A DNA stretch of 55,157 bases from Vicugna vicugna (taxonomy: Eukaryota), in the NCBI GenBank assembly GCA_013265495.1, contig MU057597.1, forward strand, positions 1 through 55,157. Reading direction: 5' to 3'. The position numbers and the translations under genes were made by a program. Each line of letters begins with the position of its first letter. The stretch's first letter is position 1. Under the pieces are notes generated by a model. That model was given only the letters and a program-made list of their open reading frames with translations, made no database searches and was not told the DNA's origin. This document shows, piece by piece, positions 76 through 52,384 of the stretch.

Positions 76-1219
76 CCCAGGAGCTTTACATCACTATACC
101 ACAACAGTGCAATTACAAGCTCTGACCCCCTAAAACCTACCCCTTCATTCATGAATATGCAGCATTACAATATTTCCTCATCTCCTCTTTTGTGCCCAAA
201 TAAAACCCATGTTACGCACCTTGATTTACCTGAAGTGAAAATAGCAATAATAAAGATGGAAAAAATTAGGAAATGACAGTTTCAGAGATAAGGTTAAGAA
301 GCTCTTTGAGCTTGGAGTACTGTAATATAATTTAGAAGGAACAATATACAGTGGGAACTTTCTAGAGTTTCATAGTATTACAGGAGAAACATGGGCCAAA
401 ATCTACTGTGATTGAGGAAATGTCTCATTTTTTGTGAATATGTCCCTATTGCTGCTTTAAAGTTATACAAACAAAATTCCCCGTAAGCAAAATGGATTCG
501 TGACTTTCACCAATAATCAACTTCTCCTCCGCTAGTCTGTATTTAATGAAAAGTTCCACGATCCACTCATTCCCTTGCTTGGACTCATGAAAGTTCATGC
601 TGAAGGGTCTTGTCAACATGGCTCGTTTGCAGTACTGCGTAATACAGAGCAATCCACCTCGTAGGAGCCCCAAATCTATCCCAGTCACTGCATCTTTTTA
701 AAATGTGAATTGATGATATCTTTTCATTTGTGTGCCACCTGAAGTATAAAATGGCATAGTCCCCCAGTCTTAGACCCCAGGTCTTCTCCCTGAGTCTCTG
801 CAACTGAGCCGTGTTGAGTTTGGCCTCCTGGGGAAATGGGGAATAGAGAAAACTGCCCATTCTACCCAGGGAGAGTTTTGTAGTTTGTAATACAGAGACA
901 ACTGAAGTTCTCATTGAAGGAAATGTTGCTGGATCCAGTCACGGTCCCGCCTGACATTCCCCAGACGCGAGTTCCTAGACCGCCGAATTGCTTCAGCCTC
1001 ACTAGCAGGACTTCTGGGCAACCCGCTGGCAAACCCAGTTTTTGACTTAATCTGTTTTCAACCTGTGAAGAGGAGACATCTCAGTTTCCGACGTGTTTCA
1101 CACAACTGCAAGCGTTTGTCTTGAAACTGTTACAGGCAGTTATTTAAACTAAGCAGACAGCAACCCTGCTGCACAAAAGACACTTCAGCGTTTCTAAACT
1201 TGAAAAAGACATCTCCAGA

Positions 1220-1960
1220 GCGAGGCGGATGGAGAGCAGGCCCCGCCTCTGCCCCTCCCCCAGCTCATGCACGCCCCGCCCTTCACCGGTAGAGCTCCGC
1301 CCAGGCCCCGCCCCCAGCCGCGTGGGCTCTTTGCCGGTGCGCCGCTTCTTACGGAACCGGAAGTGGGGTGCTCGGGTGGAAGGTCACACAGCAGACCGTA
1401 AGTTTCTCCCTTTTAGTGTAAATCTGCGCTTCGCAGTCCCCCGTAGTCCATCCTCAGGGCCTTGAAGTCAATACGGACCTTAAATCCCCACACCTGCTCC
1501 TCTGCCCCCAGTAAATTCAGACGTCGCTGTTAAAGGTCAGGGGTCGTTTCCCTTGGGGTTTAAAATCGCCCGAGGCTGGTAGCTGTCCTCGGGCTTTAGC
1601 CCTTCGGTCCACGAAGACACCACCTTTAGAGTCATTTTCCTTCTTGAAACCTCCTACTACCTCCGCCCCCCCTGGCACGTCCCCTTCCGCGAGGTGGACG
1701 GCGCCGGCCGCCCCGCTCCTGTAGGGCCAAGTCCTCTCCCGGGTCCCGGGATTCTGAGGACCCCGGCCTCTCCTGAGACCCCCTGCCTCCCAGCCCCTCT
1801 GTCCTCGCGTCCTCCTCAGGCCGGTCCTTCTGCTCCGCGGGCCTCCCCTTCGTAGTCAGCCCTTCCCCCACCCCGCGTAGGGGGAGGTGACCGGGGTCAG
1901 CCGTGTGACCCCGCAGTATTGTTACGTCCCACATTCCACCCCGCTGAAAAACGGTCTTTT
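1220..1960 (+). promoter_or_regulatory. CpG-island promoter of KRAB gene unit 1
   Basis: CpG-dense; several GC boxes (GGCCCCGCCC/CCCCGCCC) at 1239-1315; ETS/GABP motif CCGGAAGTG at 1357-1365; followed by a splice donor. Confidence 0.8.
1340..1397 (+). other. Non-coding exon 1 of KRAB gene unit 1 (start approximate)
   Basis: Donor CC|GTAAGT at 1398 directly downstream of the GC boxes and ETS site; equivalent donor in the paralog at 25376. Confidence 0.65.
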
Positions 1961-2254
1961 CCAGTAGGCGGGCATCTTACTGAGTCGACATCCCTGTAAA
2001 TACGTGGGCGCGGAGAATCAGGGGAAGCAGAGACAGTGGCTGAGAGAGAAGTAGAAAAACTGAGGAGAAAAGAAGGAGGGAGAACCAGTGGGAACGGTGA
2101 GGATGGCTGAGGGGTTGTAAAGAGACAGTAACCTGAAAGACAGCTGTGAAAGGAACAAGCGGATAAAACAGAAGTTTATAGAAGGGGGATAGACTGGTGA
2201 GCAGAATAGGGCGGCAAAGCAGCAGTGGGATAGTGGGCAACACTGGTGAAGCAC

Positions 2255-2924
2255 TGTGGGAGCCCATGATTCAGTTAATAAATTGTGACAGATCCCAGCC
2301 GCTTGTGACCTTGAAGAAGAACAAATGTGCTTTGCTAGCAGGTGCCTGTGCATTTGCACGCCTGTCTCCTTGCCATAAAAAGCAGGGACAATGCGCTGCT
2401 TGCGTAGTTGAGGTTTTAGCCTAGGGCTGCTTCCAATGGCAAAGCCATTGTGTGTCCCTTGCTATAAACGCAGGACATGGCTTATTTTAAGCATAGGTCC
2501 ATAGTTTAGGATTTACTCTTCTCGTATGACCTATGCCCTCGGCTATAAACGCTGGGCATGCCTTCTGCTGTTTAGTCTGTAATCCCCAAGACGAGGGACT
2601 GGCTAGTCTGGTGGTCTGTTTTGTAATCAACTTAGGTCTGAAGAGTGTACCTTGTTCCCCTCTCCCCATGTCTGTCCTGAAGATAAATTAAGCCTTTGTA
2701 CTCATTATGGATTCTATAATCTCTACTCCATCCCGTCTTTCCTTAAGCTCCTACATCCCATGACACAGCTATTGGTGATTTTTCCTTTGACTGTACACAA
2801 TAAATGTGGGCGCATTTGAGAGGCTTGAGGAGTTGATCCCCGACTCCCTCTCGCTCTCTTGACTTTCCACAGTCTCAAGTAATTCATTCCATCTCGGTGG
2901 GACTTCTGCCAGTCAGAACCCACA
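2255..2924 (+). repeat. 5' LTR of beta-like ERV
   Basis: Starts TGTGGG, ends CCCACA; AATAAA at 2799-2804; repeated GCTATAAACGC at 2461 and 2542; PBS follows. Confidence 0.85.
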
Positions 2925-2926
2925 AC

Positions 2927-2944
2927 TGGTGACCCCGATGTTAT
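2927..2944 (+). other. Primer-binding site complementary to tRNA-Trp
   Basis: TGGTGACCCCGATGTTAT versus tRNA-Trp PBS TGGTGACCCCGACGTGAT (16/18), 2 nt after the LTR end. Confidence 0.8.
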
Positions 2945-3104
2945 TGGCTACACAGCGACGGAATGGCACACTTCAGCTGGAGAGAGACTGCATCCTGATC
3001 CCCGTAGATTTCACTCCGGTAAAGGAACAGCAACACCCACTTGGGATAGTTGCCAACATGCCTAGAATTCAGAGAGAGCCTTGTTTTGCTTTCATTTTCT
3101 TACT

Positions 3105-4500
3105 ATGGGTCAACAATTAACTAAGGAACAAATGATCTACCTCCGCACCTTGCAGCAGCTGCTGAAAGCATCTCACTGCTCCCTGTCAGAGAGCAACTTA
3201 TTAAATTGTTACAAATGGTACAAGAGATTTGTCTCTGGTTTCCAGACCATGGAACAATCAATTTGGAATTCTGGGAACAGGTTGGTAAGAATTTAAAACG
3301 TAGGCATCAGCAAAGGGAGAAAATCCCTGCTTCCATTTTAACTACTTGGAATTTGGTACACGCTGCTTTATGTCCCTTATACTCTTATTTGCAGACTAAT
3401 TACGTTGAACCTGAACCCTGTTCTTCCCCTTCCTCCCCTCCTACTACTTCACCCCCAGTCCTTTCTGCACAGTTTGCCCCTCTTTCACAGATCGATTTGC
3501 CGCTGCCACCGCCTCCTCCGTCTCCTGAGGAGTATGATTGTAAGCAAACTGCTGTGGAACAATGTTTTAAAGAAGGTTTACATTTGGGAGAGCTGCATGC
3601 TTTCCCGGTGATTGCAGGGCGTGGCAAGGTGTTAAGCATGAGGCTGTCCCTTTCTCTGTATTCAAGGAGCTAAAAACTAGTGTTATAGAAAATGGGACTC
3701 AGCGTTCATTTACTAAAGGTATTCTTGATACAGTTGGAAATGCATATGTTCTGACTCCTTGGGACTGGAGAGCTCTTGTAAAAACTGTCTTAACTCCTGC
3801 TCAGTTTGCTATTTGGTCTTCTGAACATCATGAAGTTTCTCTTACAAGCTGCTCGTAATGCTGATGCTAATAATGGTACACCTATAGAAGTGCTTGAAGG
3901 AACAGGTCACTATGCTGACCCTCAGCAGCAGATCCATGTGGATAGGCTGGCTTTTAGGCAGTGTACTGACACTGCCCTCGCGGCGTGGTGTAAAGTTCCC
4001 GCAACCAGAGCTGCCGCTGGCTCCTTTGTTACCATTCAGCAAGGCGCCACAGAACCTTATGTTGATTTTATTAATTGCTTAGAACTGAGCATCTCTCACC
4101 AAGTAGATGATCAGGAGGCAGCGAGAGTGCTCTTACAACAGCTGGCTTATAAAAACGCTAATGCAGATTGCCAGGCAGCGCTTGCCAGTATTCGAACTCA
4201 AAACAAAAATACAGCCAATTATATAAGAGCTTGCCAGAATGTGGGAACTGAAACCCATCGTGCTCAGGCCCTTGCAGCTTTAATGAGATCCACTTCTGCC
4301 GTGACCTGCTTTAAGTGTGGTAAACCTGGCCATGGTCAAAGGGAATGCTGCCAGCCCAATAAGGGAGGGCAAGGAAGTCCGCCTCAAAAATTAACCTAAC
4401 AAAGACTGCCCTCGGTGCGGCAAAGGAAGGCATTGGGCAAACCAGTGTCGCTCTAAATCTGAGAAGGATGGCAATCTGATTTCAGGAAACGGGAAATGGG
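3105..4500 (+). pseudogene. gag: Frameshifted betaretroviral gag (MA-CA-NC)
   Basis: MGQQLTKEQ start; MA motif CLWFPDHGTINLEFWEQVGKNL; proline-rich stretch; CA LTPWDWRALVK; MHR IQQGATEPYVDF; knuckles CFKCGKPGHGQREC and CPRCGKGRHWANQC; spread over several frames. Confidence 0.9.
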
Positions 4501-4559
4501 GCGCCAGCTCCCGTGCCCCAAACCCCAAGTGGAACAGCCCCACCCGGCCAGCTCAAACA

Positions 4560-5135
4560 CAGGTCTCTCTGACCCAGTCTCCTCGGCCCGGTCCTGCGGA
4601 GACCCCTTCAGCAGTGCGTCCACAGTGGACTTGTGTTCTACCTCAGAATTAGTTCTTAAGGAACTAGATTGTATATACTCCGCCTCCACTGGAATGTCTG
4701 GCCCTTTCCCTGAAGGGACCCAGGTCTAATCGTAGTCTGCTCAGATGGATCACAGCAAGGCGTTCTGGTTCTACCTCAGTTATGTATTCTGACTTTGCTG
4801 GTGAAGTGGAAGTGCTTTTACAGCCCTCCGGACTTCACGTCCTCTCTCCGGGGACCTGGCCTGGAAAACTTCTGCTCCTTCCCCTTAAAGGGACCTTGCC
4901 AGCCCTATAACTAGTCATCCTTTGGCTACGACAGCCCTTTACTGGGCGAAAAGGATTGAGTCTCAACAGCCTCTTGTACCGGAAAATCTAAGCGGCATAA
5001 CTGTTCATGGATTATTAGGTCCGGGGCAGGTGTCTCTTACCGCGCAGCACGAGCGGCCTCCTCGGTGGGAAGGATCTGTAGGCCAGTCAGTCATTGCTGG
5101 TGTTGGGGGGACAGATCTGCCAATGCAGTAAAAAG
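4560..5135 (+). pseudogene. pro: Degenerate dUTPase-protease (pro)
   Basis: dUTPase-like SASTVDLC...TGMSGPFPEG...SDFAGEV; protease-like ALYWAKRI...GLLGPG (decayed LLDTG)...IAGVGG; stops and frameshifts. Confidence 0.8.
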
Positions 5136-5140
5136 TCTCT

Positions 5141-5242
5141 CAGATGCACAGGCGCCTGCTAGCAGAGCACATTTGTTGTTCTCAAAGGTCACAAGCGGCT
5201 GGGGTCTGTTACAATTTATTAACCCAGTCATGGTCTCCCACA
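5141..5242 (-). repeat. Inverted copy of the first 102 nt (U3) of the 5' LTR
   Basis: Reverse complement aligns without gaps to 2255-2356, 90/102 matches by manual count. Confidence 0.95.
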
Positions 5243-7501
5243 AGGCACTTCACACAGGGAGTAGGGGGAGAAGCTGAAAGAGATAGGAACCATGGCCTTC
5301 AGAGCTACATGGTGCTGGGAGAGAAGGGAAAATGAGTGACTGGAGCAGGAAGAGAGAGCGGGAAGACGTATAACCACCAGGGGGTGCTGGAGAGTGGGGC
5401 CTACGGGAGTGTAACCCGGAGGGCAGAGAGGGAGCCGAGATGAGGCAGGGAGGCAGAAATAATGGAGATTTAGGACATTCGGAAGGGTTGGGGAGAACGG
5501 GCAACAAGATGAGGAACAAGTTGCAGAGTGGGCCAGGCCGGGTGTGAGGGAGGAAATGAGGGGAGGGGAGAAACAGCAGGAGAGCAGAGGGGAACAAAAA
5601 GAGACAGAGACAGAGACAGAAAGAAATAGGGAGAGAGAGAAACTGAAATGGAAACACAGCAGAGCGGGGAGAGGGGGAAACTAGATGCGGATGGGTGGTG
5701 AGCTGATTTTATGTGGATAATTAAGTTGTGATATATTGATTCTTAGCCTTAGAATCTAATTTAAAGCTTGTTTGTTTAAATTATACAGATGAGGATAAGA
5801 ATGACAAAACTCCTGTCTGCGAGGCTTGTGCATTTTGTAATTGTTTGTATGAGAAGATAGTTTCCGTTTGCCATCCCTGCTCAGCCAGAGGGCAGTGGCT
5901 TGTTCGCTCAGTTGTGGTCACCCCCTTCGCGGCAGAGGACTGGGGAGAGGACACGTGGGGCAAGAAATGGCCAACTCCGTCACTACATTAAAAGGAACAT
6001 TGAAAGTGGTGGGGGGGTTTTGTAATGGATTTACTTTTGTTTCTCATTTCTTTACATGTAATTCTTTTTGTAGCTTGGGATAAAAATTAGTTCATTCAGT
6101 ATCTACTTTCCTGCAAATAATTATTCACTTCTGAAATAAGATTTGGTGGCCTCCTATAATCAATTCATGTCATTCTTTTCTCAATATGCTCTATTCTCAA
6201 CTTTTTTTTCACTTTGCAGAATTCTTTAGATTAAAAAAATTTTTACAAATTGATTCTCTCTCTCTTTCTTCCCTGTTTTTACAAATGGATTCTCTTTAAG
6301 TTTGTTTCACGTTTATTTGAGGCCTGTTGGCTTTCTTCTCTTTACCCTATGTCTTGGGAAAGTTCTTTGGTAACTAGTAAAATATATTAGCCTATTTTGA
6401 TGAATAGTTGGTGAGGATGTCGTGATCCTTTATAATAACCCAGGTTTTATTGCCTCCACATCAAACTCCCACATCGAAGATGCCCTTCTCCGTGGGTTAT
6501 GTTGAGTCTTTCCCATTTTCCCTCCGCTGGGCCTCACGCAGCCTCCGTCTGCCCCCCAGGACAGCTGCGGCACCTGTTTTGGGGTTGTGTTTGGAGGCTG
6601 TGTGTTGGGCTGAATATTTTTCTGGGACGACTAGGGGGCTAGAGCAGGTGATGAGGATGCTTCTCGTATTTCCTCTGGAAATGCCAGTTGATTTGTACAT
6701 TCTGTGGCCGCTCAAAATAAGAACGAAAGGATGTTGTTAAGCCTAAAAAGCCCCACAGAACTGGGGTCCTTCTGCAGTGTCCCGAGGTGTCCCCATGTTT
6801 ATCTGCTCCGCTGTAGCCCCCAGGTCTACCAGGCTGCGCACTTCCAGTGACGGTTGCCACCTTGGACAAGAGCTTTGCCTCCAGCAGTGCATCTGCTGGG
6901 GTGGGGGATGCTGATTTCACTGTGTTAAGAGTGAGCAGATGGTCAGGAACCCAAGGGGGCATCAAGGAGGCCCCCCCACGTAAAGAGCTGGTGTGTCTCC
7001 CTGTTCGCTGTGAGAGGGGAGAACAGGAGACGGTGAGATCTGGGGTCTCTCTGTCCTTGCGACTTCTTCGCTGAACTCAATCCAGCTAAATCTCAAATGC
7101 CTTTAAAGCTCAACTCTGTGACATCCCCAGTTGCTGGCAGGTTTTCCCGGGAGGCCCAGCTTCCTGAGCTCCCTCCTGAGTGCCCAGTGTCGTTTGGGTG
7201 GCAGCTTGTTCATTTCTGTTGCAATGCCGGTGCCCACTGTCCCTGTGACTTTTAGCCCAGATGCTCAGTCTTGCATGGAGGAGAGGTAGAAAGATGAGGG
7301 GAGTGGAGGGGAACCTGTGGGGTCTGCAGGAGGGACCTGGCAGCCTGTGTGGGCATCGGGATGAGCCCCGTGAGTGGTGTGTGCACCTGTGCAAAGCATA
7401 ATCGTGGGACCAAGGGATGGATGTCTTAGTTCTGGCTGGAGGACCTGGCAGTGGGTTCCTGGCTAACTGGGGGCCGCGTGGAATGGTGGGGGGCACCGTG
7501 G

Positions 7502-7790
7502 TGTCTTAGCGCAGGTTCCCTGGGACACAGATGCTGAGACTGAGATTTGCATGCATGGTGCTAAGAGGGTGGTTCATGATCACACCTGAGGAGCAATGAA
7601 GGCAGTGGGATTCGGCTGAGAGGAGCACTGTGCTGCAGTGTTGTTAGAACCAAGGCCTGCGCTGAGGTCACGTGGTGCTCTGGGTACAGGAGGATGAGTA
7701 GCTTTGTCTTTGGAGGATGGATCTAGGGGTTGTCCCGTGGCATTCACACCACACAGTGACTTCTGTGGGGCCTTTTTGGAGGGTAAGACT
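7502..7790. mobile_element. MaLR MLT1-type LTR fragment
   Basis: tgtcttagcgcaggttccctgggacacagatgctgagactgagatttg resembles the MLT1 terminus; partly shared with the inverted paralog near 45000. Confidence 0.55.
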
Positions 7791-8438
7791 CATCATGCAA
7801 CCCAAGAGTAGTTACAGGGAAAATCCCAGAGGTCACTTTGTGGGTTACCTTGGGTATTTGGGGTTGCTAGTGAAGAAAGTTTCAGATGCATTTGGAAGGT
7901 AAAAAAAAGATAACTTGGAGTGTTTCCTTGGAAGTGTTGAAGTCTCACTGGGGCAAGTGCATCAGTGTAGACTTTTATCTTTTATTATTAGATTTTAGAG
8001 GTAGCAGTGTTTGGGCTGGGGCCACTGTGAACGAAAAGAAGGTGTCTTAGGTCTAGTGGGTGCTTGGCTGTCTTCATGGTCAGTATTCCATCATAAATGC
8101 ATGAGTTATTAAGGCCTGGACTCCTTTATGAGATTGCATAGCAGGATGGGTGGGTTAGTACTGGATGTCTGGGGAGTGTGTTGGACCAGATGAAAGTTGG
8201 TAAGTTTCTTCCAGTCTGGAAGGGAAGTGGTTGGCCCTAAGCTTCGATCCCAGGGAGGGCCTGCCTGGGATGGGTGTATGGGCACAGCTCGAGAGGGGCC
8301 GTGAACTCCCGTGATGCAGGGGAAGATTATTCCAACGATCAGAGGGCCACTGATACCACAGTGACCTGCTGTGCAAAGGCTGATTCTGGGGGAAGATGCA
8401 GCGGCTTCTTTCTTGCTGCCAGTGCAGGGAGGTTATTC

Positions 8439-8472
<34 letters not shown>

Positions 8473-8486
8473 CACTCACACTCACA
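8439..8486 (+). repeat. (CA)n microsatellite
   Basis: Directly visible. Confidence 0.95.
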
Positions 8487-8489
8487 TGA

Positions 8490-9395
8490 TACAGATAAAA
8501 GGGGACTCTTGTGCACAGTTGGTGGGAACGTGAATGGTATGGTTTTGTGGAAAACAGTTCCTCAGAAATTAGAAACAGAACAGGCACAGGACCGAGCACT
8601 GATTATTCCCACTTCTGATTATATTTCCAAGGAAACTAGATCCGTGATTTGAAGGAGTTACCTGCACTCCTGTGAGCATTACTGCATTATTCACAACAGC
8701 CAAGACGTAGAAACAACCTAAATGTCTGTCGACAGATGTGGATAATGAAGACTTGTGTGTGTGTGTGTATGAGACAGGCTGGGACCTGGGACCCTTTACT
8801 GCAGTGCTTGCACCTGGACAAATTCTCCTCAAGCAACCGGATACAAAGAAACTACGAGGGACTAAAACGTACGTGCAGGCGTGCGCAGTAGAGGCAGTTA
8901 TGAACAATAAGATACAAAAAGAGCACAAGCCAACTGCCACCTCAGAGGAGCCGGGAGCAAAAGCGGGGTACCACTCAGGATCCCTGCACACAGCATCACC
9001 ACGGAGGTGGGCGGATCGCCTAGGCTGTGCCTCCTGCCCGACCCACCGGTCTGCTCCTGCCCTCACTTCATGTGAGGAGCCAGCTGGCCTCTCCTGCTTG
9101 GGGAGCGAGCAAGGGCCCCCTTTTCTTGTCTCACGTCGCCTCCTCTTGCTACGAGTCCCAATAAAGCCTTGTCTGAATTTCTCGTCTGGCCTCATCAATT
9201 TTTGTTGATTAAAGAGCCCAAGGACCTGGGTTGTAACACACACACACACACACAAACACAAACACAATGACATGTTTAACCATAAAAGTGAAGATTTTGC
9301 CACTTAGAGCAACATGGATGATCGTAGAGAACGTTATCCTCAGAGAATTAAGCAAGACAGAGACAGGTATTAAATGGTCTCCCTTATATGTGGCA
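8490..9395 (+). mobile_element. Old L1 ORF2-end/3' UTR fragment interrupted by a solo LTR
   Basis: ttattcacaacagccaagacgtagaaacaacctaaatgtc and gcaacatggatga...ttatcctcag are L1 3' motifs. Confidence 0.75.
8770..9238 (+). mobile_element. Solo LTR (ERV1-like)
   Basis: TGAGACAGGCTGGGAC...TGTAACA; AATAAA at ~9160; same family as the split LTR at 25876-33816. Confidence 0.85.
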
Positions 9396-14137: not shown

Positions 14138-14356
<219 letters not shown>

Positions 14357-14878: not shown

Positions 14879-16263
14879 GTCAGCTCTCAGAAGGGCAGAG
14901 AGGAAGCCACAGCATTGATAGTGTCTGAGAAACTCGCCCCACATTGGAGAGTTCTATGAGAAAACAGAAGTTTATTCTCAACTCTCAGAGGAAACGTTTC
15001 TTCTCCCCAGCTTACCACTCTGTCCTTGAACATGCGAAATGTGAGCTTTCACCCTCCAGGGGCGCTGCAGCCCTCTGCTCTCTGCCCCCTGTCAACCTTG
15101 CTGCTTGACTTGGAGGCACGGGGGATGGATGGGCTGTTTGGAAGGGGTCTCCTTCCATCCTTGTCTCTCCTGTACTTGATTCCACTGGCTGTCCAGTTCT
15201 TGGTCTGTATAGGTCGGAGCTGACACCTCCAGAGAGCCCTGATCCCTGGGCTGATCCTGATTCCATCCCAGTTTGCTGTGCATTAAAGACCTAAACAGGA
15301 GGTGGGAAAGCACTGGCTGCTCTCTGATTCCACCTGGCACCTCAGACCCTGCACGGAGCTGCCCAAGCGCTGTCTGCGGCTCCGGTCCCTTAGCTATTTC
15401 TTCTGTTACTGCTGTGCCCCAGCCTTCAGGGGGTTGTGTAAAGGGGCAAAGAGTGGGATCTCCTGTACTTGTTCCTTAGGAAAACTGTAAAGACAGTGGA
15501 TGGAGAGAGTGTCTTTGACCCCCAGTCCTCCGTGGGGAGCATATATGAATCAGGCTCCGAGCTTGGCACCTGTGGGTAGAGCGCAGGGTCCCAGGTCAAG
15601 GTTACACAGCGTCTGACCCCCCATATCCTGCCTTTTTCTCGCTCTTGCACCTGTTTGTCCAGTCGGGGCTTGTAGTCTCTTCCTGATAGCGTACTCTCTT
15701 AAACTGGCATGATTTTGCCTTTGGAACTTGCTTTTGAAATATACTTCGTAGGGTCTAAAATTTTACCCTATTTTTAAATTTTATTTTATTTTTTGCTCTG
15801 ATAAGCCACCTTTAGGTGATGAACATCTTCTGGTGGCCTTTCCTGTGGAATGAGTATGCTTGGTAACAGAACGTTCTTGGTGGAGAATGTTTTCACTGGC
15901 GCTTTGCAGTGTTATTCCGCCACATACAGAAGCACGACGAAGCTGCTCAGTAGGGAGGTCAGCGTTTCTCAGGACACTGAGGTAGAAGTTCTCATGAGAG
16001 CCTGACTGAGAAGTGTTTCTAGTTTCCTTCTGGTTTTGAGAAATGTCACAAAAGCATGTCTCAAGGGCTCTGTGACAGTCTTGTTTACATATACTAACGG
16101 TCATTCCTTTTGAGAGTCAATAAATGGTATAAGAATTTCTCCTAGGGTCAACACTGTCCAAGTTCATGTCTGCAAATCTTTGAGGCTGTTGGCTAAACTT
16201 GTTCTTGCCACATTTTTCGTGCCCTATGTGTGTCACTTGTCATTCTACTTCAAGAAATACAGT

Positions 16264-16584
16264 GGTTTTGTTTTTCAGTTGAAGTATATTCAGTTATAGT
16301 GCATCTGTTTCTGGTGTACAGCTTACTATCCCAGCCATGCATAGATGTACATATATTTGTTTTCATATTCTTTTTCACTAAAGGTTATTACAAGATTTTG
16401 AATATAGTTCCCTGTGCTATACCGAAGAAATTTGGTTTTTTAATCTATTTATATATATTTTGGTTATCAATTGCAAATCTCAATCTCTCAAATTTATCCA
16501 TCCCACTATCTTTCCCCCAGTCACTGTAAGATTGTTTACTATGTCTGCGAGTCTGTGTTTTGTAGAGGAGTTCATTAGTGTCCT
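16264..16584 (-). mobile_element. 5'-truncated L1 with TSD
   Basis: 12-bp TSD AAGAAATACAGT (16252-16263, 16585-16596); T-rich tail at left. Confidence 0.9.
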
Positions 16585-16849
16585 AAGAAATACAGTTTTG
16601 AAGCATCTTAATGAGGGAGCTTATAAGCTGAATGGTGCCGCCAGTGAAAGCACTGTAATTTGCTTTGTTTAAGTCACTGCTACTTTTGTTTGGCACATTG
16701 CTATGCATTATAGATGAACTTGATTTGTATTTATTTAATTGTTAGGGCCATATTTTTGATGGTACTCTTTGTGTTCTTTGTTTAATATCTGCAGTGTGTG
16801 GGAAGATTGAATTGGGGAATGGCCCCCTGCCATGGTAGCCAGACCCTTT

Positions 16850-17940
16850 TAGAGTTTTTCGTATATTCTCAATATTAACCTGTTGTCAGATATATTATGT
16901 GCACATATTTTCTACCATTCCATATATTGTCTTTTGACTCTGCTGTGTATGCTTTGATTTACAATAGCTCATAATTTCAATGCAGTCCGGTTTATTTGTT
17001 TTCACTTTTGTTACCTGTGCTTTTGCAGTCATATCTGACCAGTCGTTGTCAAATCCAACATAATGAAATTTTCCTGTTTTTTTCTTCTAGGAGTTTTATA
17101 GTTTTAGGTGTTACGTTTAGGCATTTTGTCCATTTTGAATTAAATTTTGTATATGGTGTAATGTAATGGTCCAACTACATTCTCATGCGTGAGGAGGACA
17201 TCCAGTCTCAACACCTTTTATTGAATGGACTGCCCTTTTTCTTTCGAGTGGTCTTAACGCCCTTGTCAAACATCATTTCACTGTATGTGTGGGAGTTCAT
17301 TTGTGATGTGTCTGTTCTGTTCCACTGGTCTTTCTTTCTGTCTTTGAGCCAGTACCACACTGTTTTGATGAGTAGTAGCTTTGTAATACATTTTGAAATA
17401 TGGAAGTATGAGACCTCAAACTTTGTGGTTTTTAGCTTATTTTTGCTATTTGGGGTCTCGAGATTCCATGTGAGTCTTAAGATAAATTTATCTCTTTCTT
17501 CAAAAAATGCTATTGGGATTTTGCCAGGGATTGCTTTGAATCTGTTCATCGTGTTTGGTAGTACTGACAGCTAGACAATATTGTCTTCCAGTCCATGAAC
17601 TTGGGATATCTTTGCATTTATTTGCATCTTTTCTAATATTTTTCAGCAGTGTTTTTAGATTACAGTGTATAGATCTTCACCTTTTTGACTAAGGTTTTGC
17701 CTAAGTGCTTATTCTTTTTGATCCTATTGTGAATGGAATTGTTTTCTCAGTTTTCTTTCTGATTGTTCATTATTAATGTGTAGAAACAATTGATTTTTGC
17801 ATGTTGATTTTATATCATAATTTTTCTGAATTCACTCATTAGTTACATCAGGTTCTTTTGGCAGAATCCCGTGAGTTTTCTACATGTTAGATTATGTTGG
17901 CTCTAAGTAGATAATTTTGCTTATTGTTTCTGTCTCTTTG
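16850..17940 (-). mobile_element. Old L1 ORF2 fragment
   Basis: Peptide RFKAIPGKIPIAFF...KTVWYWLKDRKKDQWNR; same insertion present in the inverted paralog at 52.4-53.3 kb. Confidence 0.9.
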
Positions 17941-19560: not shown

Positions 19561-20269
19561 TGCTGTGTCCAGCGCAGTTTAGGACCATGTCTGAGGACAG
19601 GCAACCCAAGACTTAAGAAACAAAGAGACAAAGTAAAGAGCAAAGATGGGACCAGGGAACTCAAGATCTCGTGGATTTAAAGTGCCAAAAGCCTGGTCGA
19701 CATTATATTTATTAGGAGTACACAGCTCAAAAAAAAATGCGATCAAAGAGGTGGGGCTTTAGATATTCCAGGCGATAAGCAGTAGGTTCTGCTTGCTGGT
19801 TAGCTGATTAATTTCAGGTCTGTCTCTTCCGGGAACAGTCACCCTCCTCGGGGTTTGCAACACTTCTAAGTCTATCTTGTTATTGCCCCTGGGACATCTC
19901 GAGATAGCAGATACTCCCCCTGGGTTAAACTGCATGCTTTCGTGCCAGAGCAAAGTTCTGTTAATGGATGACTGGCTTTCCAGGACCGTCCATTGTTTAC
20001 CCTCGGAAACAAATGCCCTCGTTCGTGCCCTTATGGTCAATGTCAGGATTGCCCCTCACAAATTTTCTTTAGCACAATACATGCTATAGGTCATCTACTG
20101 CGTAAAACATTAAAACAAAGCAAGCATGTGCATTTTAAGCAAGTGTGAATATAACATTTTAAGCTCATGGAAATTTAGGTGCGGCTTGTTTTCTAGCTGC
20201 TTGTTTTCCAGCAGGTTGTTTCCCAGCAGATAAACATTACTAAGCTGTTTTATAAAGCAGTATCCCACA
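19561..20269 (-). mobile_element. ERVK-like LTR with residual tRNA-Lys-like PBS
   Basis: Minus strand starts TGTGGG and ends CAGCA; AATAAA (plus TTTATT 19708-19713); TGGCACCCAAACA at 19558-19546; related copy at 49315-50035. Confidence 0.8.
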
Positions 20270-20607
20270 GGGTGTTGAAGTGTTGATTTCAGATATTGCT
20301 ATTGAGCAATATGTTGCATGGTTGATTTTCAACTGTAGTGAAATTTCTTGTTTCTTCTTTTTAATGTGATTCTTTCTTACATTTATTTTCTTCTTCCACA
20401 CGATGTGATCCACATTATATATTTAACTTACATTTTCCCCGTTTTACACAAAAGGATACATAAATCAGTGTGCTGTGAGATTTTTGTGACATGAAGATGC
20501 ACATAAGACAATAACAGGTCCAAAGTAAGTGTGCTAGAAACATGAAGAGTTCCTTCAGGTCTTTATTCAATGAAATACCTGGAAAGACATGAGGTGGTGA
20601 ATGGAAT

Positions 20608-20900
20608 CTTTTTCTTTTTAATTGAAGTATAGTTGATTTACAATGTTGTGTTAGTTTCTGGTGTGCAGCATAGTGATTCAGTTGTACATATATATGCCTT
20701 TTCATATTCTTTTTCATTATAGGTTATTACAAGAGTACAGTTCCCTGTGCTGTACAGTAGGACCTTGTTGTTTATTTTATATATGGTAGTTTGTATCTGC
20801 TAATCCCAGGCTCCTAATTCATCCCTTCCTCCTTTCCCCTTTGGTAACCATAGCTTGTTTCCTATCTCTGTGAGTCTGTTTCCGTTTGTAAATAAGAACT
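20608..20900 (-). mobile_element. L1 3' end fragment
   Basis: ttttaattgaagtatagttgatttacaatgttgtg...ggtaaccatagcttg; absent from the inverted paralog. Confidence 0.85.
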
Positions 20901-21877
20901 GAAATACTTTAATGTGGGAGTTGGCTATGATCAGGTGCTTGAAAATCAGGTGTGTGGAGATTAATAGGCATGCAGTGAAGTTACTGAAAATATAATGATG
21001 AATAAGATGGAAAGTCCCCAAGACTCCAACTATAGTTTGTGGCAAGGAGATCGTCTCCACTGCCAAATGGCCAGAGGCTACTTTGCCCTTTCCCAGTGAC
21101 CTGGTCACATCCAGAGCTGGTGGAACTTGCAGGGAAAGTGATGTTTGTGCTACTTTTATCATGGCAACCGGCACCTAGTATCCTCCACTTAGAACTTGTT
21201 CCTATCCCAGAGTAACAAGTAGATTTCTGTTAATAAATGATCTTAATTTTGATATTATCTTTTATATTATACTTTGAGTAAGAGTCACGGCTTTAACGCT
21301 TTATGTGCGTTAATTGATTGAACCTTCCACTCTCTAAGCACTGATGTTATTTTTATTTATTCTTTATTTTTTGTATTCACCCAGTGACTGGGTGAATAAT
21401 ACATGAAGAGAAATTGTCATTGAAACTCAAAGGTCACATTCTTCTAAACACAAATTTTCTACATAACTTATTCAGATAATTACCTCGGTCTCTGTATTTT
21501 TCCCTTGTAGATGATGTCAACCATATAGTTAAAGGAAAGCTATCTTAATGCAACTTACAAATTGTCTATGTTATGAAACTTCTAACTTATTCTGGGCTAA
21601 GCAAATAAGCCTGTAGGTAAGACTGAGTGCTGTGCATACGGCTTGCTCTGCAGTAGAATATTGGTTGAATGTCGCCTGGGGACGTGAGGAAGATAACAGG
21701 GGCTCAAGACAGTACAACTAAAATACTTAGTTTTGGAAGGAGGTAGTGTTAGATTCTAACTCTCCCATGGCACCTAAGCTCCTTTTCTGATCTATAAAAT
21801 GGACTGTGAATGTTCATTTATTTGCTGTTAGGTCAAATGGGTGTGACTGAATAGTTGTTTTCATACAGTAAAGTACT

Positions 21878-24744: not shown

Positions 24745-25875
24745 GTTAGTGTGAAATAGCCCATTCCACCCAAAGAGAGTTTTCCCACGCGGACAAATCC
24801 AGTTCTTGTTTGCTTAAACTGCTTAAATTCTAGTTGCCTGAAATGTTCCTGGATCCAGCCGCCACCCCACGTCAACACCCTCCACCTGAAATTCCAGTTC
24901 CCAGACCTCTGAATTGCTTCAGCCTCACCAGCAGGACTAGCCTTCAACCTGCTGGCAAAAACAGCTTTTTTTTTTTTTTCTCATTGAGTCCGGGAGAAAT
25001 AGATTTTGACTTAAACTGTTTTCAACCTCTTTAGAGGAAAACATCTTAGTCTCCAACATAAGTATCCCAACACTCTAAGCTTTTACTTTAAAACTGTTAC
25101 AAACAGGAACTTAAACTAAGGAGGAAGCAATGGTGCATCACAAGACCGTGAAGACTCTCAAGCGTGTTTTATCCCAGACAAGGTACCTTGGGAACCAAAG
25201 GGAGGGACGTGCAGGCCCCGCCCCTCCGTCTCACGGTTCCTGCGCTGCGTCTGGCCCCGTGTCCCGCCCCTCGCAGAGGCGCTTCTCCCAGGCCCCGCCC
25301 CTTCCACTCCGCGCACGCGCAGTTCCCTACAGATTCAGAAGCCGAGACTGAGGAGCTGAGGTCGCGCTCCGGGTGGTGAGTTGATTGTTTTTTCTAGTTA
25401 AACGTACGTGTCGCAGTCCCCTCTTCTCCGTACCCGAGGTTTGGGGGTCCCTACGGACCTTGAAATTCCCGCCCCCCCGTCCATCCCCAGCTAAGTTCAG
25501 TCGTGGCCGTGGGAGGCCCAGGGCCGTTTTCCCTTTGGTGGGAAGTCGCTCTGAGGCTGCTCCCTTCTTCGGCTTTTCTGCTTTCGGGCCACGTAGTCTC
25601 CGCTTTTCTTGCCGTGTTCCTGCTTGAAACCTTTTACTGACCTCAGCACCCCCACCATGTGAAGCCCTCCTCCCCAGGTGGATTCGTCCCTCCCAGCCTC
25701 GCCGTCTCGGCCCGTGGAGGGCGGCGCTGGCCGCCCCGCTCCCGTGAGGCCGCGTCCTCTCCCGGGTCCCGGCCTCTCCTGAGACCCTCTCCCTCCCAGC
25801 CCCTCTGTCCTCCGGTCCCCCTCAGGCTGGTCCTTCTGCTCCGCGGGCCTCCCCTTGGTCGTCAGCCCTTCCACT
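24745..25875 (+). promoter_or_regulatory. Duplicated CpG promoter and exon 1 (unit 2), paralog of ~840-1870
   Basis: Collinear blocks such as gaattgcttcagcctcac, ttttgactta and ctgctccgcgggcctcccctt; GC boxes; NRF1-like GCGCACGCGCA at 25311-25321; donor GTGAGT at 25376. Confidence 0.85.
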
Positions 25876-26734
25876 TGTTACTCCCCATTGAACTCTTTAA
25901 TCAATAGAAATTGGTAACAGGCCAGAGGAGTAATTCAGGCAGGGCTTTATTGGGACTCCGGCTGCAGCAGGTGGGAACGAAAACAAGTAATAGGTTCCTT
26001 TGCCCGCTGTGTGTCGGGGAGGGGGGATGGTTGTGCCGAAAAATCAGCCTCGGAACCTTGGAGGCAGAATTGTGGGAGCAAAGAAGAAAGAGAGCCGCCT
26101 TATTGCTTTGCTGGACAAAGGGAGTCAGCAGGCCAATGCCTCGGAAACTTAATCCATCCTGGGTTGGGGCTTGGTGATTATGTAGGCAAAGGGGTTGGAG
26201 CATATCGGTGGTAATGAGCAATAGAATCTCTTACAAAAGTTTGTTTTGTGTCATGATAACTTATTGTTGTCTGTCAGGTAGGTCATTGTCCGCGGCCTTG
26301 GGGTCTGATCCCACCGGTGTCACGGGGTTAGGGGTGTGGAGGGGTGGTTGGAGGATCTGGCGGTTCCTTCAGTGTTACCGTTCCATGACCTTTCTGGAAA
26401 GCAGCTTCTGGGATTTGGATACAAGTAATTTAGGTAGGGCATACATCATAGGGTCGGAGCTGCCAAGCATGTAATCATTCAACCAAGTTAAACAGTAGTA
26501 GCAAGGAGTAACACAGGTTAGTCAGAAAGAACTCGGATAAAACAAATTAATCGATCACAGTAAACTCTGTAATCTTAGTATCAGGGAAGCCATTTTGTGA
26601 CTCCTTCAAACCCCCACTGTTAGTTCCTTCTATGTCCTGCTTTCTGCTGATCTGGCCCGAAAGCCAGTTGGCAACCCTGGGATCCATCTGTGATGCATAG
26701 GCGCCTGCATCTCCAGTGTTCTGAATTTGATATT

Positions 26735-31353: not shown

Positions 31354-33899
31354 TAGAATCCTCAACTCTCAAAAAAGCCGCAATTTCTAGTAAAAACTAA
31401 GAAGTGTGTAATTATGAATTGTCTTTTACATTAGCATTTCGTAGGCTGGCAAACATAAATACCAACAGTGTCTGAAAACCACGTGCTTTCTTATTCTTAT
31501 TAATAGTCCTGAATAGCTTTGGTTTCTCTGTAAAAGGAAACTAATGTTTATTAATTAATGTTTTAGTATTTTATCTCATTTGCATTTGATATACTTGAAA
31601 GAACTTTTATTATAGCAAGCAATTTTTTGCTGACAAATTTGTAACAGATATAACAAAATCTTATTTATTAAATCTGTGTAACAAAAGTATTATATACTAT
31701 GCATAACATCAATGACTCTAAAGACATACTTATATTACTCAAAACAGTGAGTTTTAACTTTAATATTAGTTATCAATCTGATACTGAGTATTTCCCAGTT
31801 CCTGTGAACCTGAAATATATTTTGTTTAGCTTTTGAGAAAAAGTCAACTAAACAGTAGCGTTTTAGAAATCCTTAGTTTGTTAAGCACTTACTTGTAAGG
31901 CAGTTAAATAGAACTCTTTTATAAATTGAACACTTTTAGAGGTAGAGACATCTTGTATCTATGCCCAGACGGAGATCTCATAGTTTTCCTGCTTAAGTTT
32001 TCAACGGCCATTTACCACTTTTTTTTCCTTTGGTTTGAGGTTCTAAGAATTAACCGCAAGGCTGAATGAAGCCTCAGGCACAGCAGGCTGTGTGTGTCTT
32101 TCAAGGATGTGGTAAGAGTTGACTGCAGTCTGGTGTCAAAGTGTGTCAGCCAAGACCCCGCTCTTGGTCATCCCCGGCGTCCTGAGAGGCAGCAGTTACT
32201 GGGGTCCTGAGGCTGCCAGGCGCCTCGGGCCCCTTATTCGCAGTCATTTTTTCACCTCCTTCCAGATGATACATTAACCAAGTTGCGTTACAATAAAACG
32301 CCGTTTTCTTTTCAGTCAGTGAAGAATAGCTGTGGTTTGACCAGTCCTTTAGAATCTTTCCCAAGGGACTGTCAGGTGGAAGTGACGTGGCGCCGCCCAC
32401 TTTATCTAACCGCACGTCCTCCCAGAGACGCAGAATTCCAGCCTCACCCAGAGAGGGGATTCCAACCCTGACCAGCAAATGGAAGCCTCACATTCCAATG
32501 CAAAGGCAGACTCAGATACAACTCAGATCTGGCACAAGCCCAAATTAAACCCAAATCGGCTTCCTAGTCCACTAAGCCCGTGAGCTGCTTTCCAGTTGGC
32601 ACCTTCCAAATGGGGGCTTTGAGAGAGCGCGCCCATCAAATGGGCGGCCCCGAGGGGTCAGGGGGCCTCGGCGGGCACCGGGAACTTACCCAGAGTCTGG
32701 TCGGGGAATCTCCGAAGGGCACTCCCGGCCAGGCCGGAAAGGAGGGGGAAGAAGCCCCCGGAGCCGAGGGGTCCGGCAGCTGCTGGGGCTGCATCTGCCC
32801 CCCCGCCCCGTCCCAGAGCGTCAGCTGCCCGGGTGGCAGGCCTGGAGGGCTCAGGCAGAGATCCCCGCCTTTGAAAAGTGGGGGACCTCGAGTCCCTTCC
32901 TGGTCATGAAATCTGTTGCCCGAAAAATCAGCCTTTGCATCCCCAAAAGCGAATTCAAACTCAGGCAGTTTTGCAAGCAGAGAAGAGAGAGCCGTTTTAT
33001 TGCTTTGCCAGGCAAAGGGGGTCACAGTGGGCTAACGGCGTGGAAACTGAATCCCTCCTGGCTTGGGGCTTGGTGATAATATAGGCAAACAGGATGGAGC
33101 ACATCAGTGATAACAAACAATAGAAGTGAAGTTTCTGGTGGCCCTTCAAGTCGGGCACTGCTGTGGTGTCACCTACCAGGTCTGATCTCTCCAGCGTCGA
33201 GGGGTGGGGGCTGGGCTTTGGAGGATCTGGCGATTCCTTCAGTGTTTTCGTTCCGTGACCTTCTTTCTGGAGAGTAGCTCCTGGGTTTTGGATGCAAGTA
33301 ATTTAGGGTAGGGCATGAATCACAGGGTCGGGGTTGCTAAGCGTGTAGTCACTCAACCAAGTTAAACAGCAGTAGCAAGGAGTAGCACAGGCTGGTCAGA
33401 AAGAACTGGGAGAAAACAAGGCAATCACAGTAAACTCTACAGAGCTGTCTTAGCAGCAGGGAAGCTGTCTTGTTACTCCTGCAGTGATGGCGAGCTGGTC
33501 CCTTAAATGGGGTGAGGGTGGGAGCGGGTCCAGGGTTCGGCCTGGAATGGTGGCTTAGGCGGTCTGCCCACCCCCACCCCCCAGTGGTGGAGCTGTGTGC
33601 AGGGACCATGCGCAGTGCTGTTGTTTGCTCCCAGCACCTCAGGAGCGGCAGTTGGGTTTTGGTCTTTCTGTATCCTGTTGTTCATGGTTGCTCCAGCTGC
33701 CCCCACACACACTTATTTTTAGTCCCATTAGTTTCTTTGTATTCTGTTGCTCCAGGAGCCATTTGTCCAGGTGCACACAAAAAATGGTTCCAGGTCCCAA
33801 GTCCCAGTCTGTCTCATCCTCACTTGGATAGAGGAGGTGACCTGGGCCAGCTGCGTGACACCATGTTCTTCCATCCCAAATTCCACCCTGCTGGAAAAT

Positions 33900-35700
33900 G
33901 TGCAGTCAGTGAAAAAAATTAATCAATAGTCAATCTAAGAAATGAAAAATTTATTCCTGCCAACCTGAGGATTATAGCCCAGGAGACAGCCTCTCGGCTC
34001 TGAGAACTGTTGTGAAGAGGCAGGGGTGGGGGCGATTGTATAAATGGTTTTGGCAAAGGGGTGCATGCAATCAAGCACACGCGTTGGTAGAAGATAACAA
34101 CTATTCTCAAGGAACAGACGTCTCAGTGAATGGCTTAGTGCTTTTCCAAGTATGGGAAGATGCAAGAATCCAGGTTCATACAAATTTCTCCTGTGAATAT
34201 CTGTCTGAAGGGCCTGTTCTGCCGGGTTTCCCGGAGCAGAGAGCGCCTCATCCTGATCTTCGCCCTGAATTCCTTCCAGGCTGTGTGCTGTCGGTCAGGG
34301 GCCGCAGTGGCTAACGACCTGATTCTTGTAGAACTGGGGGGTGGGCAACTTTATTTTATAATCCCTTCTTTCCCTTTTGATCTTAATTTCAGCTGAGGTT
34401 TGGGAGGCGTTTTGTGGCCAGTTTGCCCCACAGCGCTAGGAATGCTCGTTCCCAGGCCCGGCAAGGAGGATTTCGTGGCGAGGCCGTCAGCCTGCTGTGG
34501 CTGGACTACGCCCTGCCGCCTGGAGCCGAAAGCCTCAGACCGTCTGTCTGACCAGCCTGTTACGGGCCTGGAACTGGTCCCCTCTTGTTGCTTCTTCCCA
34601 TATATGCAGTTACACTGTTACAGTCGTTGATCTCACAGGACTGTGTACTTGGTCGGTTGTTTCAAGTTGCCTGAGCACCACCGATTTTATCTGAGGCTCA
34701 GACACACGTTCGGTTGTGCAAGAAACAGTGATCTTGTAGAACAGGCAGAATACAAGTGGGACAGCTAGTGACAGTAACAAGGCCCCAGTGAGTACTTAAC
34801 TGAGAGCTTCCATTAGGCGCGGCCCAGGGTCTCCCGGGTCGGCTGGAGAGTCTGTTCTGCTGCATCAGCTGTTATCCTTAAGGGAAATGATACCTTGTCA
34901 CTGTGCAGAGTTCACCAAGCACACGGGCGAGTGGTGGGTCACTGCTGAAGGAGATGCCCCAGGACGCTCGCTCGCAGCCCCTGGACAGAGCCCCAAGGGA
35001 GGGTCCGTGGTGTCTCGCAGGAAGGAATTCAAGAGTGAGCCAAAGTAAAGTGAACACAAGTCTATTTAGAGAGATACACGTTCCAGAAAGCACACCTTCT
35101 CAAAAAGTGAGCGTGGCCCTGGGGTGTGGAGGTGGTTAGTTTTTATAGGCTGGGTGATTTCATAGCAAACGAGTGGGAGGACTGTTGTGTTTTTAAGAAG
35201 GGGTAGGGGTTTCCAGGAATTGGGCCACTGCCCACTTTTTGTCCATCTGTGGTCAGTCACCTTGGAACTGTCATGGTGCTGGTGGGTGTCATTAACATGC
35301 TGGTGTATTACCACTCTGTGTGTAACCGAGCTCAGGGTCTCCTGGAAGTCAAACCTTCTGCCGTCTTGGGATCTATCCATTTTCTTGTCAAATCCTGCTT
35401 TTCTAAATGGCTTTGTCCCCCTCCTCATTCTTTTAACATTTGTGCCCTGCCCACCTCCTGTCTCATGCTGACTCCTTAGAGGACTGAGAATGTTATCTTT
35501 TAAAGTTACATGGCTGGTGCCAAAGGAAGAGAAATTGATCTTTATGGTTGAGCAGGAATTTCCACCACTGGGGACGTCTGGTTAACGCCTAATGCAGCTG
35601 CACAGTGCACCCCAGAGGGGAGGGAGGAGGCCAAATGGGCAGAGGAAATTTTATCTTTAAACTTTTCCTGTCTTGCCTTAGACTGTGAATTTTTATTTCA
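33900..35700 (-). mobile_element. Cluster of nested ERV1-like LTR/internal pieces (~33900-34360, 34896-35465, 35491-35700)
   Basis: Absent from the paralog, where 1953 joins directly to ~1960; TG/CA-bounded segments; purine tract at 34362-34381 on minus. Confidence 0.7.
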
Positions 35701-37060
35701 TCAGTGCTCTCAGGAGGCAGGCATCTTACTCCATCTCGCTGCCCCTGAATGTCGGTGGGGGGACCAGGAGAGACACAGTGACTTAGAAAACCAAGGGGGA
35801 AAGAGTGGGTGAGATCAGATGGCACTGTAGAGGTCGGGTGAGTGTCTTGCAAAGAGGGTAAGAATGAAAGGGAAACAGCAGGGGAAGTAGCAAATGGGTA
35901 AAACAGAGGCGTGTCCAGAAAACCGGGATCTGCAGGGAGATGAAGGTACAGAGATAAAGGCAGGGTGGGAGCGGAGCCCTTGGTGACAGTGGGGCCAGCA
36001 GTGGGGAGGCACGTCACACGGAGAGTGCTTGGAGGGGTCAAGAGTGGAAGCCCTGGTCCTCAGAGTAGCTGGATGCTGGAGGGGAGGGGGAGACCAGGGA
36101 AGCAGAGGGAGCAGCACACAGAAGGAGCAGAGTTGGAAGAAAAGGCAGGAAGAATGGAGATTTGGGACACTGAGAAAAGTAGGGGAGAAAGAGCAGTAGG
36201 AGGGGAATAGGCTGCAGAGTGGGGCAGGAGAGGAGTGCGGGGAGAGACGAAGGAGAGGGAGAAACGGCAGGAGAGTGGAGGGGAGCCAGACAAAGAAACA
36301 GGGAGATAGAAAAACCAAATGAGAGGGAAGCACCTCGTAGCACAGGAGTGGGGTGACACCTGGATCCAGATGAGTGCCGAGTTGTTTGTGGATAATCAAG
36401 TTGTGATGTATTAATTTGTGGCTTTGGAATCTAATAAATTTAGACTTTTTAAAATTGATTATACAGATGAGCATGAGACCTGAAAAACTCTGGTCTCTGA
36501 CTTGTGCATTTTGTAATTATTTGTATCAGAAGGTAGCTTCCATTTGCAACCCCTGTTCAGCCAAGGGCAGTGCCTTGAGTCTAATGGTAGTGAGTCACCC
36601 CCTTCCCCTGACATTGATGTGAGCCGAAGGTCAAGGGACAGGACATCTGAGGCAGGAAGTGACCGACTCTGCCACATGAGGCCTTTGTAAATGAACATTA
36701 AAAGTGCCTTTTTTTCCCCCGGTAATAGTTTTGCTTTTTTCTTGTTTCTTTACTTTTTGTAGCTTGAGATCTTAGTTAATTCAACTTCTCTCCTATACTT
36801 ATTAACTTCTGAAATGAGCTTTGGTGGCTTCCTATAATCAGTTCATGTCATTCTTACGTAAATATGCTCTATTCTGTAGAATATTTTAAGCCTGACACCA
36901 GTTTTTTTTTAATTGAAAGAAACTACCATCTTTCATAGTTTCTGGTTTAGATCAGGGCCTGTGAGCTTTCTCCTCTTTATCTTACATACTGGAGTTCTTT
37001 GGTAAGCAGTAAACATTTCCACACTGTGCTTATGAGTACTTGGTAAGGCCAGTGCCCTTT
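35701..37060 (+). repeat. Paralogous intron-1 sequence (matches 1960-2254 and 5243-6420)
   Basis: Collinear blocks ggcatcttact, aatggagattt, gtggataat-aagttgtgat, cttgtgcattttgtaatt, tcctataatca-ttcatgtcattctt. Confidence 0.9.
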
Positions 37061-44211: not shown

Positions 44212-44299
44212 AGGAAAGTAGCAGCTATATCTTCCCCAAAATAAGCCTTTGTACTAGGAAAGTAGCAGCTTTATCTTCCCCAAAATAAGCCTTTGTACT
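44212..44299 (+). repeat. 44-bp tandem duplication
   Basis: aggaaagtagcagct(a/t)tatcttccccaaaataagcctttgtact x2, one mismatch. Confidence 0.95.
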
Positions 44300-49314: not shown

Positions 49315-50035
49315 TGCTGCATCCAGTGCAGCTCGGGACCGTGTCTGAGGACGGGCGACGCAAGACTTAAGGAACAAAGAGACAGAGTAAAGAGCAAAGA
49401 TGGGACCAGGGGACTCAGGATCTCGTGGATCTAGAGCGCCCGAAAGCCTGGTTGACATCATATTTATTAGGAGTATACAGCTCAGGAAAAAATGCAGTCA
49501 AAGAGGTGGGGCTTCAGATGTTCCATGTCTCAGGATTTCTCCTCACAAAATTTCACCTACTGTGTAAAACATTAAAACAAAGCAAGCATGTGCATTTTAA
49601 GCACGATAAGCACTAGGTTCTGCTTGCTGCTTAACTGATTATTTTCAGGCCTATCCCTCCTGGGAACAGTCACCCTCCTCGGGGTTTGCAAAATTTCTGA
49701 GTCTAGTCTATCTTGTTACTGCCTCCGGGACATCTCGAGGTAGCATCGCAAATACTTCCCTTGGGTTAAATCACATGCTTCCATGCCAGAGCAAAGTTCT
49801 GCTAATGGATGACCTGGCTTTCCAGGACTGACCACTGTTTTACCCTCAGGAAATACCTGCCCTCCTTCATACCCTTATGGTCAGTCTCAGGATTTCTCCT
49901 CACAAAATTTCATCTACTGTGTAAAACATTAAAACAAAGCAAGCATGTGCATTTTAAGCAAGTGAGTGTGAATACAATACTTTAGCTCATGGAAATGTAG
50001 GTGCGGCTTGTTTTCTAGTTGCTTGTTTCCCAGCA
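49315..50035 (-). mobile_element. ERVK-like solo LTR with internal ~77-bp duplication
   Basis: Collinear with 19561-20228; TG...CA; AATAAA on minus at 49463-49468; possible decayed TSD GTACTG/GCACTA. Confidence 0.85.
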
Positions 50036-52320: not shown

Positions 52321-52384
52321 TACTGAAATACTAGACATAACATTACATGAGAAGGGAAAGATTTATACAATGCAAGTTAAAATG

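Follow-up and report, generated by a model that had tools for sequence, protein, structure and literature searches.

Within contig MU057597.1 of Vicugna vicugna (assembly GCA_013265495.1), a stretch of 55,157 nucleotides (nt) that was analysed at its full length and is referred to here as the window, lies a decayed endogenous retrovirus (ERV) at positions 2249..5248. This ERV begins and ends with the same tip of the unique 3' (U3) region, the two copies facing inward inside one target-site duplication. A canonical provirus has two long terminal repeats (LTRs) in direct orientation and presents one U3 end and one unique 5' (U5) end to the host DNA; here, both ends are U3 ends. Judged by its Gag and its 6-nt duplication, the element is a class II (beta-like) ERV, and its parts are, in order, the 5' LTR, tRNA-Trp primer site, broken gag, dUTPase-like sequence, half of a protease gene, and inverted U3 tip. 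Most likely it is the relic of a one-off event, in which viral DNA synthesis went wrong or the provirus was rearranged later, rather than a member of a new mobile family.

The inverted right end and the target-site duplication

The 5' LTR is complete and spans 670 bp of the forward strand (2255..2924, TGTGGG...CCCACA), its 3' boundary being fixed by the primer-binding site that starts 2 nt downstream. TATAAA motifs are found at 2463 and 2544 and an AATAAA signal at 2799. The tips of U3 and U5 form a perfect inverted repeat (TGTGGG...CCCACA), and the terminal repeat is no longer than 6 bp. A long natural terminal repeat in U5 was considered as well and rejected, as the repeat comprises these 6 bp only.

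The first 102 nt of this LTR (2255..2356, forward strand) return at the other end of the element as an inverted copy of U3 positions 1-102 (5141..5242, reverse strand), with CA at the host junction. A repeat finder and blastn (E 1e-31) both delimit these arms, which are identical at 90/102 positions and differ by 8 transitions and 4 transversions, corresponding to a Kimura two-parameter distance (K2P) of 0.13 and to a raw fraction with a 95% interval of 6-20%. The inner limit of the similarity is sharp at U3 position 102 and the outer limit falls exactly at the LTR tip; both ends of the element terminate at TG...CA. When the right end was compared with the last 102 nt of the 5' LTR, direct identity was only 22/102, against 90/102 for inverted U3, which rules out a truncated direct 3' LTR. 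The same figure answers a question raised by the first-pass annotation, namely whether U5 might naturally carry the 102-nt inverse sequence: the element's own U5 is without it. At the right end, a 3' repeat region (R) and U5 are absent, and no purine run of at least 9 nt that could serve as a polypurine tract occurs in the element past 4430. Moreover, the window contains no further LTR piece, no pol or env, no other 3' LTR sequence and no second copy of the unit. Folding of either arm was not better than that of shuffled sequences (z -1.25 and -0.02), and Rfam gave a single sub-threshold match (E 0.74).

The unit is flanked by AAGCAC on the left (2249..2254) and AGGCAC on the right (5243..5248), and a paralogous intron elsewhere in the window carries one AGGCAC at the corresponding empty site (36007..36012; all three on the forward strand). 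An unconstrained local alignment of the left flank to this intron ends at 36012 with a score of 117 (best of 200 shuffles, 55), and that of the right flank starts at 36007 with a score of 52, which 0/300 shuffles reach. Since the paralogous intron has a single copy of the hexamer and no ERV, the flanking hexamers represent a true duplication, and beyond these six bases no host base was gained or lost. Among duplication lengths of 3-9, 6 alone fits (5/6 identical; chance ~0.012 from local composition), and all others were rejected. The description given in the first-pass annotation of a full 5' LTR followed by gag, of an inverted LTR start after a break in the protease region, and of hexamer flanks with a single counterpart in the paralogous intron thus holds, now with the exact register supplied by the flank alignments. 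A CA tip abutting an exact 6-bp duplication favors the action of integrase at both ends. Two opposed and independent insertions at the same six bases were rejected as an explanation because site-specific targeting would be needed.

Two further features of the flanks were observed. The pre-insertion site (2246-2254 joined to 5249-5254) forms a short imperfect palindrome, GTGAAG, CA, CTTCAC, probably by chance. Its centre does not coincide with that of the duplication, and the paralog lacks it. In the right flank, about 70-75 bases at 5330-5400 are extra relative to the paralog and are not derived from the LTR.

Coding region, relatives and age

Downstream of the primer-binding site lies a class II gag (3105..4650, forward strand) encoding matrix, capsid and two zinc knuckles, as evident from Pfam (Gag_p10, Gag_p24, Gag_p24_C and zf-CCHC_5), from PDB, where the best matches are a Gag-Pro-Pol chain and HERV-K Gag/capsid, and from the reading frames in tblastn. 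These frames place four frame breaks near 3190, 3620, 3840 and 4390, in keeping with an old copy. In-frame stops were found in 0/457 codons of the homologous pieces, which were bounded partly by open frame.

Betaretroviruses are primed by tRNA-Lys, the primer site that a strict assignment to Betaretrovirus would call for. The primer-binding site here (2927..2944, forward strand) is instead complementary to tRNA-Trp, with a match of 16/18. It was compared with the tRNA-Trp complement (given in bioRxiv 10.1101/400127) and with the primer of avian leukosis virus (ALV) and endogenous avian virus (EAV) proviruses (as given in PMC5029493). The element is thus a class II ERV bearing Gag_p10 with a tRNA-Trp primer site like that of avian alpharetroviruses, and its closest named Gag relatives include one emu and one cobra protein. 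The family may represent a distinct class II lineage in mammals.

Past gag, the signal fades. A degenerate dUTPase-like region in pieces (4610..4886, forward strand) is weakly recognizable: it has no Pfam match, its only PDB match is a dUTPase at E 0.29, and the pairwise alignments rank at 23 and 53 of 1000 shuffles. It is followed by the N-terminal half of a degenerate protease (4931..5140, forward strand) in which the catalytic motif is not intact and which ends before the C-terminal half. Identification of this half came from P0029, the one protein with an RVP domain in a Pfam scan of the 26 long Gag relatives (from a set of 151 proteins). Alignment to its RVP region covers 4931-5068 with a score of 55 (1/1000 shuffles; best of 9 frame/reference pairs), and similarity is lost before the junction. 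A motif scan of all 151 proteins gave no protease besides that of P0029. Within the pro region itself, no Pfam family was matched at E<=10 and no protease in PDB; the protease piece had no usable match in the ESM Atlas, and a query spanning the junction returned no candidate. The pro that the first-pass annotation had listed alongside gag is therefore present by the P0029 alignment, but far more faintly than was implied. The whole of pro (4600-5140) is much more degenerate than gag (3105-4520), with no Pfam match in the one and strong matches without stops in the other. This may mean that the infecting element already belonged to a defective, helper-dependent lineage, or that its protease was very divergent.

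The point at which the protease breaks off offers one lead. An alternative frame across 5127-5153 reads S-K-K-S-L-R-C-T-G, which we take to resemble the segment that follows the flap of class II proteases. This second reading frame would place 12-13 nt of pro inside the arm, as a possible microhomology common to pro and inverted U3 (5141..5153, forward strand). Such a microhomology is predicted by a template-switch model of the junction, as discussed below. No test gave it support, the protease, Pfam and PDB queries being empty. As a gauge of how often such identity arises, comparison of the 2.2-kb interior with the reversed LTR yielded one match only of at least 11/12.

The arms differ by a K2P of 0.13, so the insertion is old and is not a fold-back artefact. 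If the arms were identical at insertion, this distance corresponds to 30 million years (My) at a rate of 2.2e-9 per site per year. At the faster rate of 5e-9 per site per year, as given in PMC8605555, it corresponds to 13 My. Two of the gag frame breaks recur in a pair of Logan proteins: P0004 (91% over 90 aa) and P0011 (84% over 75 aa). When these are aligned to window positions 3830-4396, their termini share the out-of-frame readings of this copy. Both proteins are singletons, each present on 2 contigs no longer than 1172 nt, and their amino-acid difference of ~12% equals a neutral DNA difference of ~5-6%. By these shared breaks, they may stem from an ortholog in a diverged species, from a segmental duplicate, or from a defective subfamily, and P0005 (80%) is probably another member of the family. 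Wider searches were negative: a protein search for long relatives gave 0/4071 candidates at E<=1e-10, Gag confirmed 0 related loci of 162 metagenome stretches and 0/12 in viral contigs, and a DNA-pattern search returned 0 viral loci and 28 metagenome loci, all of them chance matches in which no more than 22 bases were identical where the pattern lay.

Origin of the second U3 end

We lean slightly towards an origin in which integrase itself inserted two U3 ends, carried by one DNA molecule or by two. The element would then be the germline fossil of a U3/U3 insertion made in a cell without a U5 end. Six nt is the duplication length given for alpha- and betaretroviruses, represented by ALV and mouse mammary tumor virus (MMTV), in PMC12789967. 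In vitro, the integrase of Rous sarcoma virus (RSV) is reported to perform concerted integration when a gain-of-function U3 is the sole end carried by its donors (PMC3579926).

Of the routes that lead to such an insertion, one that needs a single integration complex is tentatively preferred, although we hold it with less than even confidence. Reverse transcriptase (RT) would have switched onto plus-strand strong-stop DNA to yield one cDNA with two U3 tips, which then integrated normally. Specifically, once the second strand transfer was complete, plus-strand synthesis would proceed as far as the protease gene and there jump to a spare plus-strand strong-stop DNA at about U3 position 90-102. 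Copying of this template back to its 5' tip would generate another blunt U3 end where the U5 end would otherwise lie. Integrase would next trim both U3 tips to CA and insert them together, giving the 6-bp duplication, and host repair would discard the unpaired flaps, on which pol, env and the 3' LTR were carried. The inverted arm fits this model in its length, since a piece copied from strong-stop DNA has to be shorter than one LTR, and the exact LTR tip, the 6-bp duplication and the short arm would all be accounted for by the same route. Displaced plus-strand pieces and rare non-homologous switches of RT are described in PMC3187697. Inversions also occur in human immunodeficiency virus (HIV) proviruses in vivo, with two cases of n=1 (1.3% each) reported in PMC9278108.

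Several points weigh against birth with two U3 ends in a single complex. First, the CCCACA tip shared by U3 and U5 lets a later rearrangement yield an identical junction. Second, the microhomology expected from a template switch is unproven because no intact protease of the family was retrieved. Third, the stop-free gag hints that the two U3 copies already differed at insertion: the probability of finding 0 stops is ~0.03 if each arm drifted 6%, and 0.16 at 3%. This hint is only weak because the gag pieces were bounded partly by open frames. Finally, in unperturbed HIV vector integration, aberrant proviruses numbered 0/99 and 0/85 in the data sets of PMC5041404, so that the event is rare.

The strongest competitor is a normal provirus that was rearranged later, which we regard as possible but rather unlikely. 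Here, a template switch during replication or repair (deletion-inversion-deletion) would have departed from pro, copied the U3 of the 3' LTR backwards as far as its tip and re-joined the U5 tip via CCCACA, so that the duplication made at insertion was kept. The right end indeed finishes in the same 6 nt as U5 of the 5' LTR and is fully compatible with a normal right junction; because both tips read CCCACA, a later deletion with templated inversion could have retained the junction originally made there. Millions of years (13-30 My) were available for such an event, and the divergence of the arms is as expected for two LTRs of one provirus. However, two junctions are needed, and the second must hit the tip-to-tip match among the 129 exact inverted 6-mers that exist between two LTR copies, counted as ordered matches (452 for 5-mers and 1873 for 4-mers). 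In addition, pol, env and other 3' LTR sequence would have to vanish from the window without trace. The first-pass annotation had proposed that integrase joined two U3 ends, from two cDNAs or as an aberrant product. The CA tip with its exact 6-bp duplication favors integrase action, but the annotation overlooked that CCCACA is present in both tips and that later rearrangement would produce the same junction.

Less probable, and in our view doubtful, is that the U3 ends of two cDNAs were joined to the host by one integrase complex, the inserts having met tail to tail and most of each then being lost through end joining or through collapse of the long palindrome, so that a 102-bp arm was left. 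In cells, the integrase complex normally assembles on both ends of one cDNA, which counts against this route, as does the need to trim the second molecule to at most 102 bp from its tip. The contrast between a stop-free gag and an arm divergence of 12% mildly suggests that the arms came from different templates, as two molecules would provide. Moreover, concerted integration in vitro with donors bearing a single U3 end necessarily employs two molecules (PMC3579926).

A one-ended integration, in which integrase inserts the left U3 while host polymerase extends the truncated right end on viral U3 and joins it to the host, is very improbable. At aberrant HIV ends, truncation is frequent, as is joining to further viral sequence, which may lie in either orientation, with short homology (PMC5041404). 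The usual outcome of such host-repaired events is, however, a much larger duplication or deletion (PMC5041404; PMC2857682, with one 273-bp case among 15) rather than the canonical 6 bp duplicated next to a CA tip (PMC5041404). Relative to the paralog, the second end here shows exactly 6 bp duplicated.

The unit possesses both terminal inverted repeats and a target-site duplication, and the first-pass annotation had raised the idea of a multicopy element of this kind, an idea that found no support. We give very little credence to a retrovirus-derived family that propagates by means of terminal inverted repeats, and equally little to its boldest extension, that U3-U3 units recur as such elements in a tRNA-Trp-primed class II family. 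The two gag frame breaks shared by P0004 and P0011 do show that a related defective copy is present somewhere, but the 5-6% neutral DNA difference of these proteins is explicable by an ortholog or a segmental duplicate, and the window holds this one copy alone. Self-propagation is unlikely since the polypurine tract, 3' R and U5 are missing, and with them the cis parts for regenerating the ends via RNA. By the standard mechanism, transcription from the LTR would begin only past the left arm, and the RNA would be unable to restore the ends. Least credible of all is an assembly artefact by fold-back or chimeric join, for although an exact look-up found 0/10 open reading frames of the window, the arms differ at 12/102 sites where a fold-back would be identical, and the flanks close exactly onto the empty site of the paralog.

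Genomic setting and comparison with known systems

The surrounding sequence suggests that the ERV sits in the first intron of a probable KRAB zinc-finger gene, ~850 bp into that intron and in the sense direction of the gene. Upstream lies a CpG-island promoter (1200..1950, forward strand) in which GTAAGT at 1398 is the donor of the first exon; this is the start of the probable host gene, which would be linked to a KRAB-A exon at 14159..14270 (forward strand; Pfam KRAB E 2.8e-16). Polyadenylation signals in the sense direction at 2277, 2799 and 3200 could cut the host transcript short or re-start it. CpG-island promoters and first introns occur in duplicate (1000-1950, 25000-25900 and 33800-36900); together with the KRAB-A exon (14159-14270), they mark the region as a KRAB zinc-finger cluster. 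Further old duplicated blocks pair 6984-9089 with 33489-33823 and 44258-45519, 15776-17683 with 52352-54041, and 19561-21168 with 49315-50410; they occur in both orientations at ~67-87% identity, as fits a gene cluster that undergoes rearrangement.

The literature searched contained no account of an endogenous provirus that has two U3 ends, which is weak evidence as older virology on RT errors was thinly covered. If the second U3 end was born at integration, the element would provide in vivo evidence that the integration complex can dispense with pairing one U3 and one U5 end, otherwise a test-tube result. It would also predict a class of proviruses that are overlooked because LTR-finders and integration-site assays assume direct repeats and a U5 junction. 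An inverted U3 tip with a canonical duplication is a pattern easily screened for in mammalian genomes and in long-read vector data. The element itself, one decayed locus, has no function shown.

Class II proviruses such as HERV-K(HML), Mason-Pfizer monkey virus (MPMV) and MMTV resemble the element in their Gag_p10 matrix, capsid, zf-CCHC_5 knuckle, 6-bp duplication and TG...CA ends, and perhaps in dUTPase-like sequence ahead of the protease, the signal for which is weak here. They differ in having a direct U3-R-U5 right LTR and a tRNA-Lys primer, whereas this element has an inverted U3 tip, no pol or env, and a tRNA-Trp site. DIRS-1 elements and miniature inverted-repeat transposable elements (MITEs) likewise have inverted termini. 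DIRS-1 is described as using a tyrosine recombinase; here, there is no mobilising enzyme and no evidence for more than one copy.

Further parallels come from aberrant integration. One-ended proviruses of avian sarcoma-leukosis virus (ASLV) and HIV also have one normal end and another that is truncated and joined to viral sequence in the opposite orientation, but those in PMC5041404 usually carry long duplications or deletions, whereas here both ends look integrase-made and the duplication is canonical. HIV proviruses with inversions or asymmetric LTRs (PMC9278108) share the intact 5' LTR, large deletion and inversion, ascribed there to misalignment of RT; unlike here, the inverted piece is not seen as a terminal attachment (att) site in the accessible part of that study. 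The U3/U3 products of RSV integrase in vitro are alike in that two U3 tips are co-inserted with a 6-bp stagger. As far as PMC3579926 describes them, these arose in engineered two-molecule reactions, while the element of Vicugna vicugna is a germline insertion.

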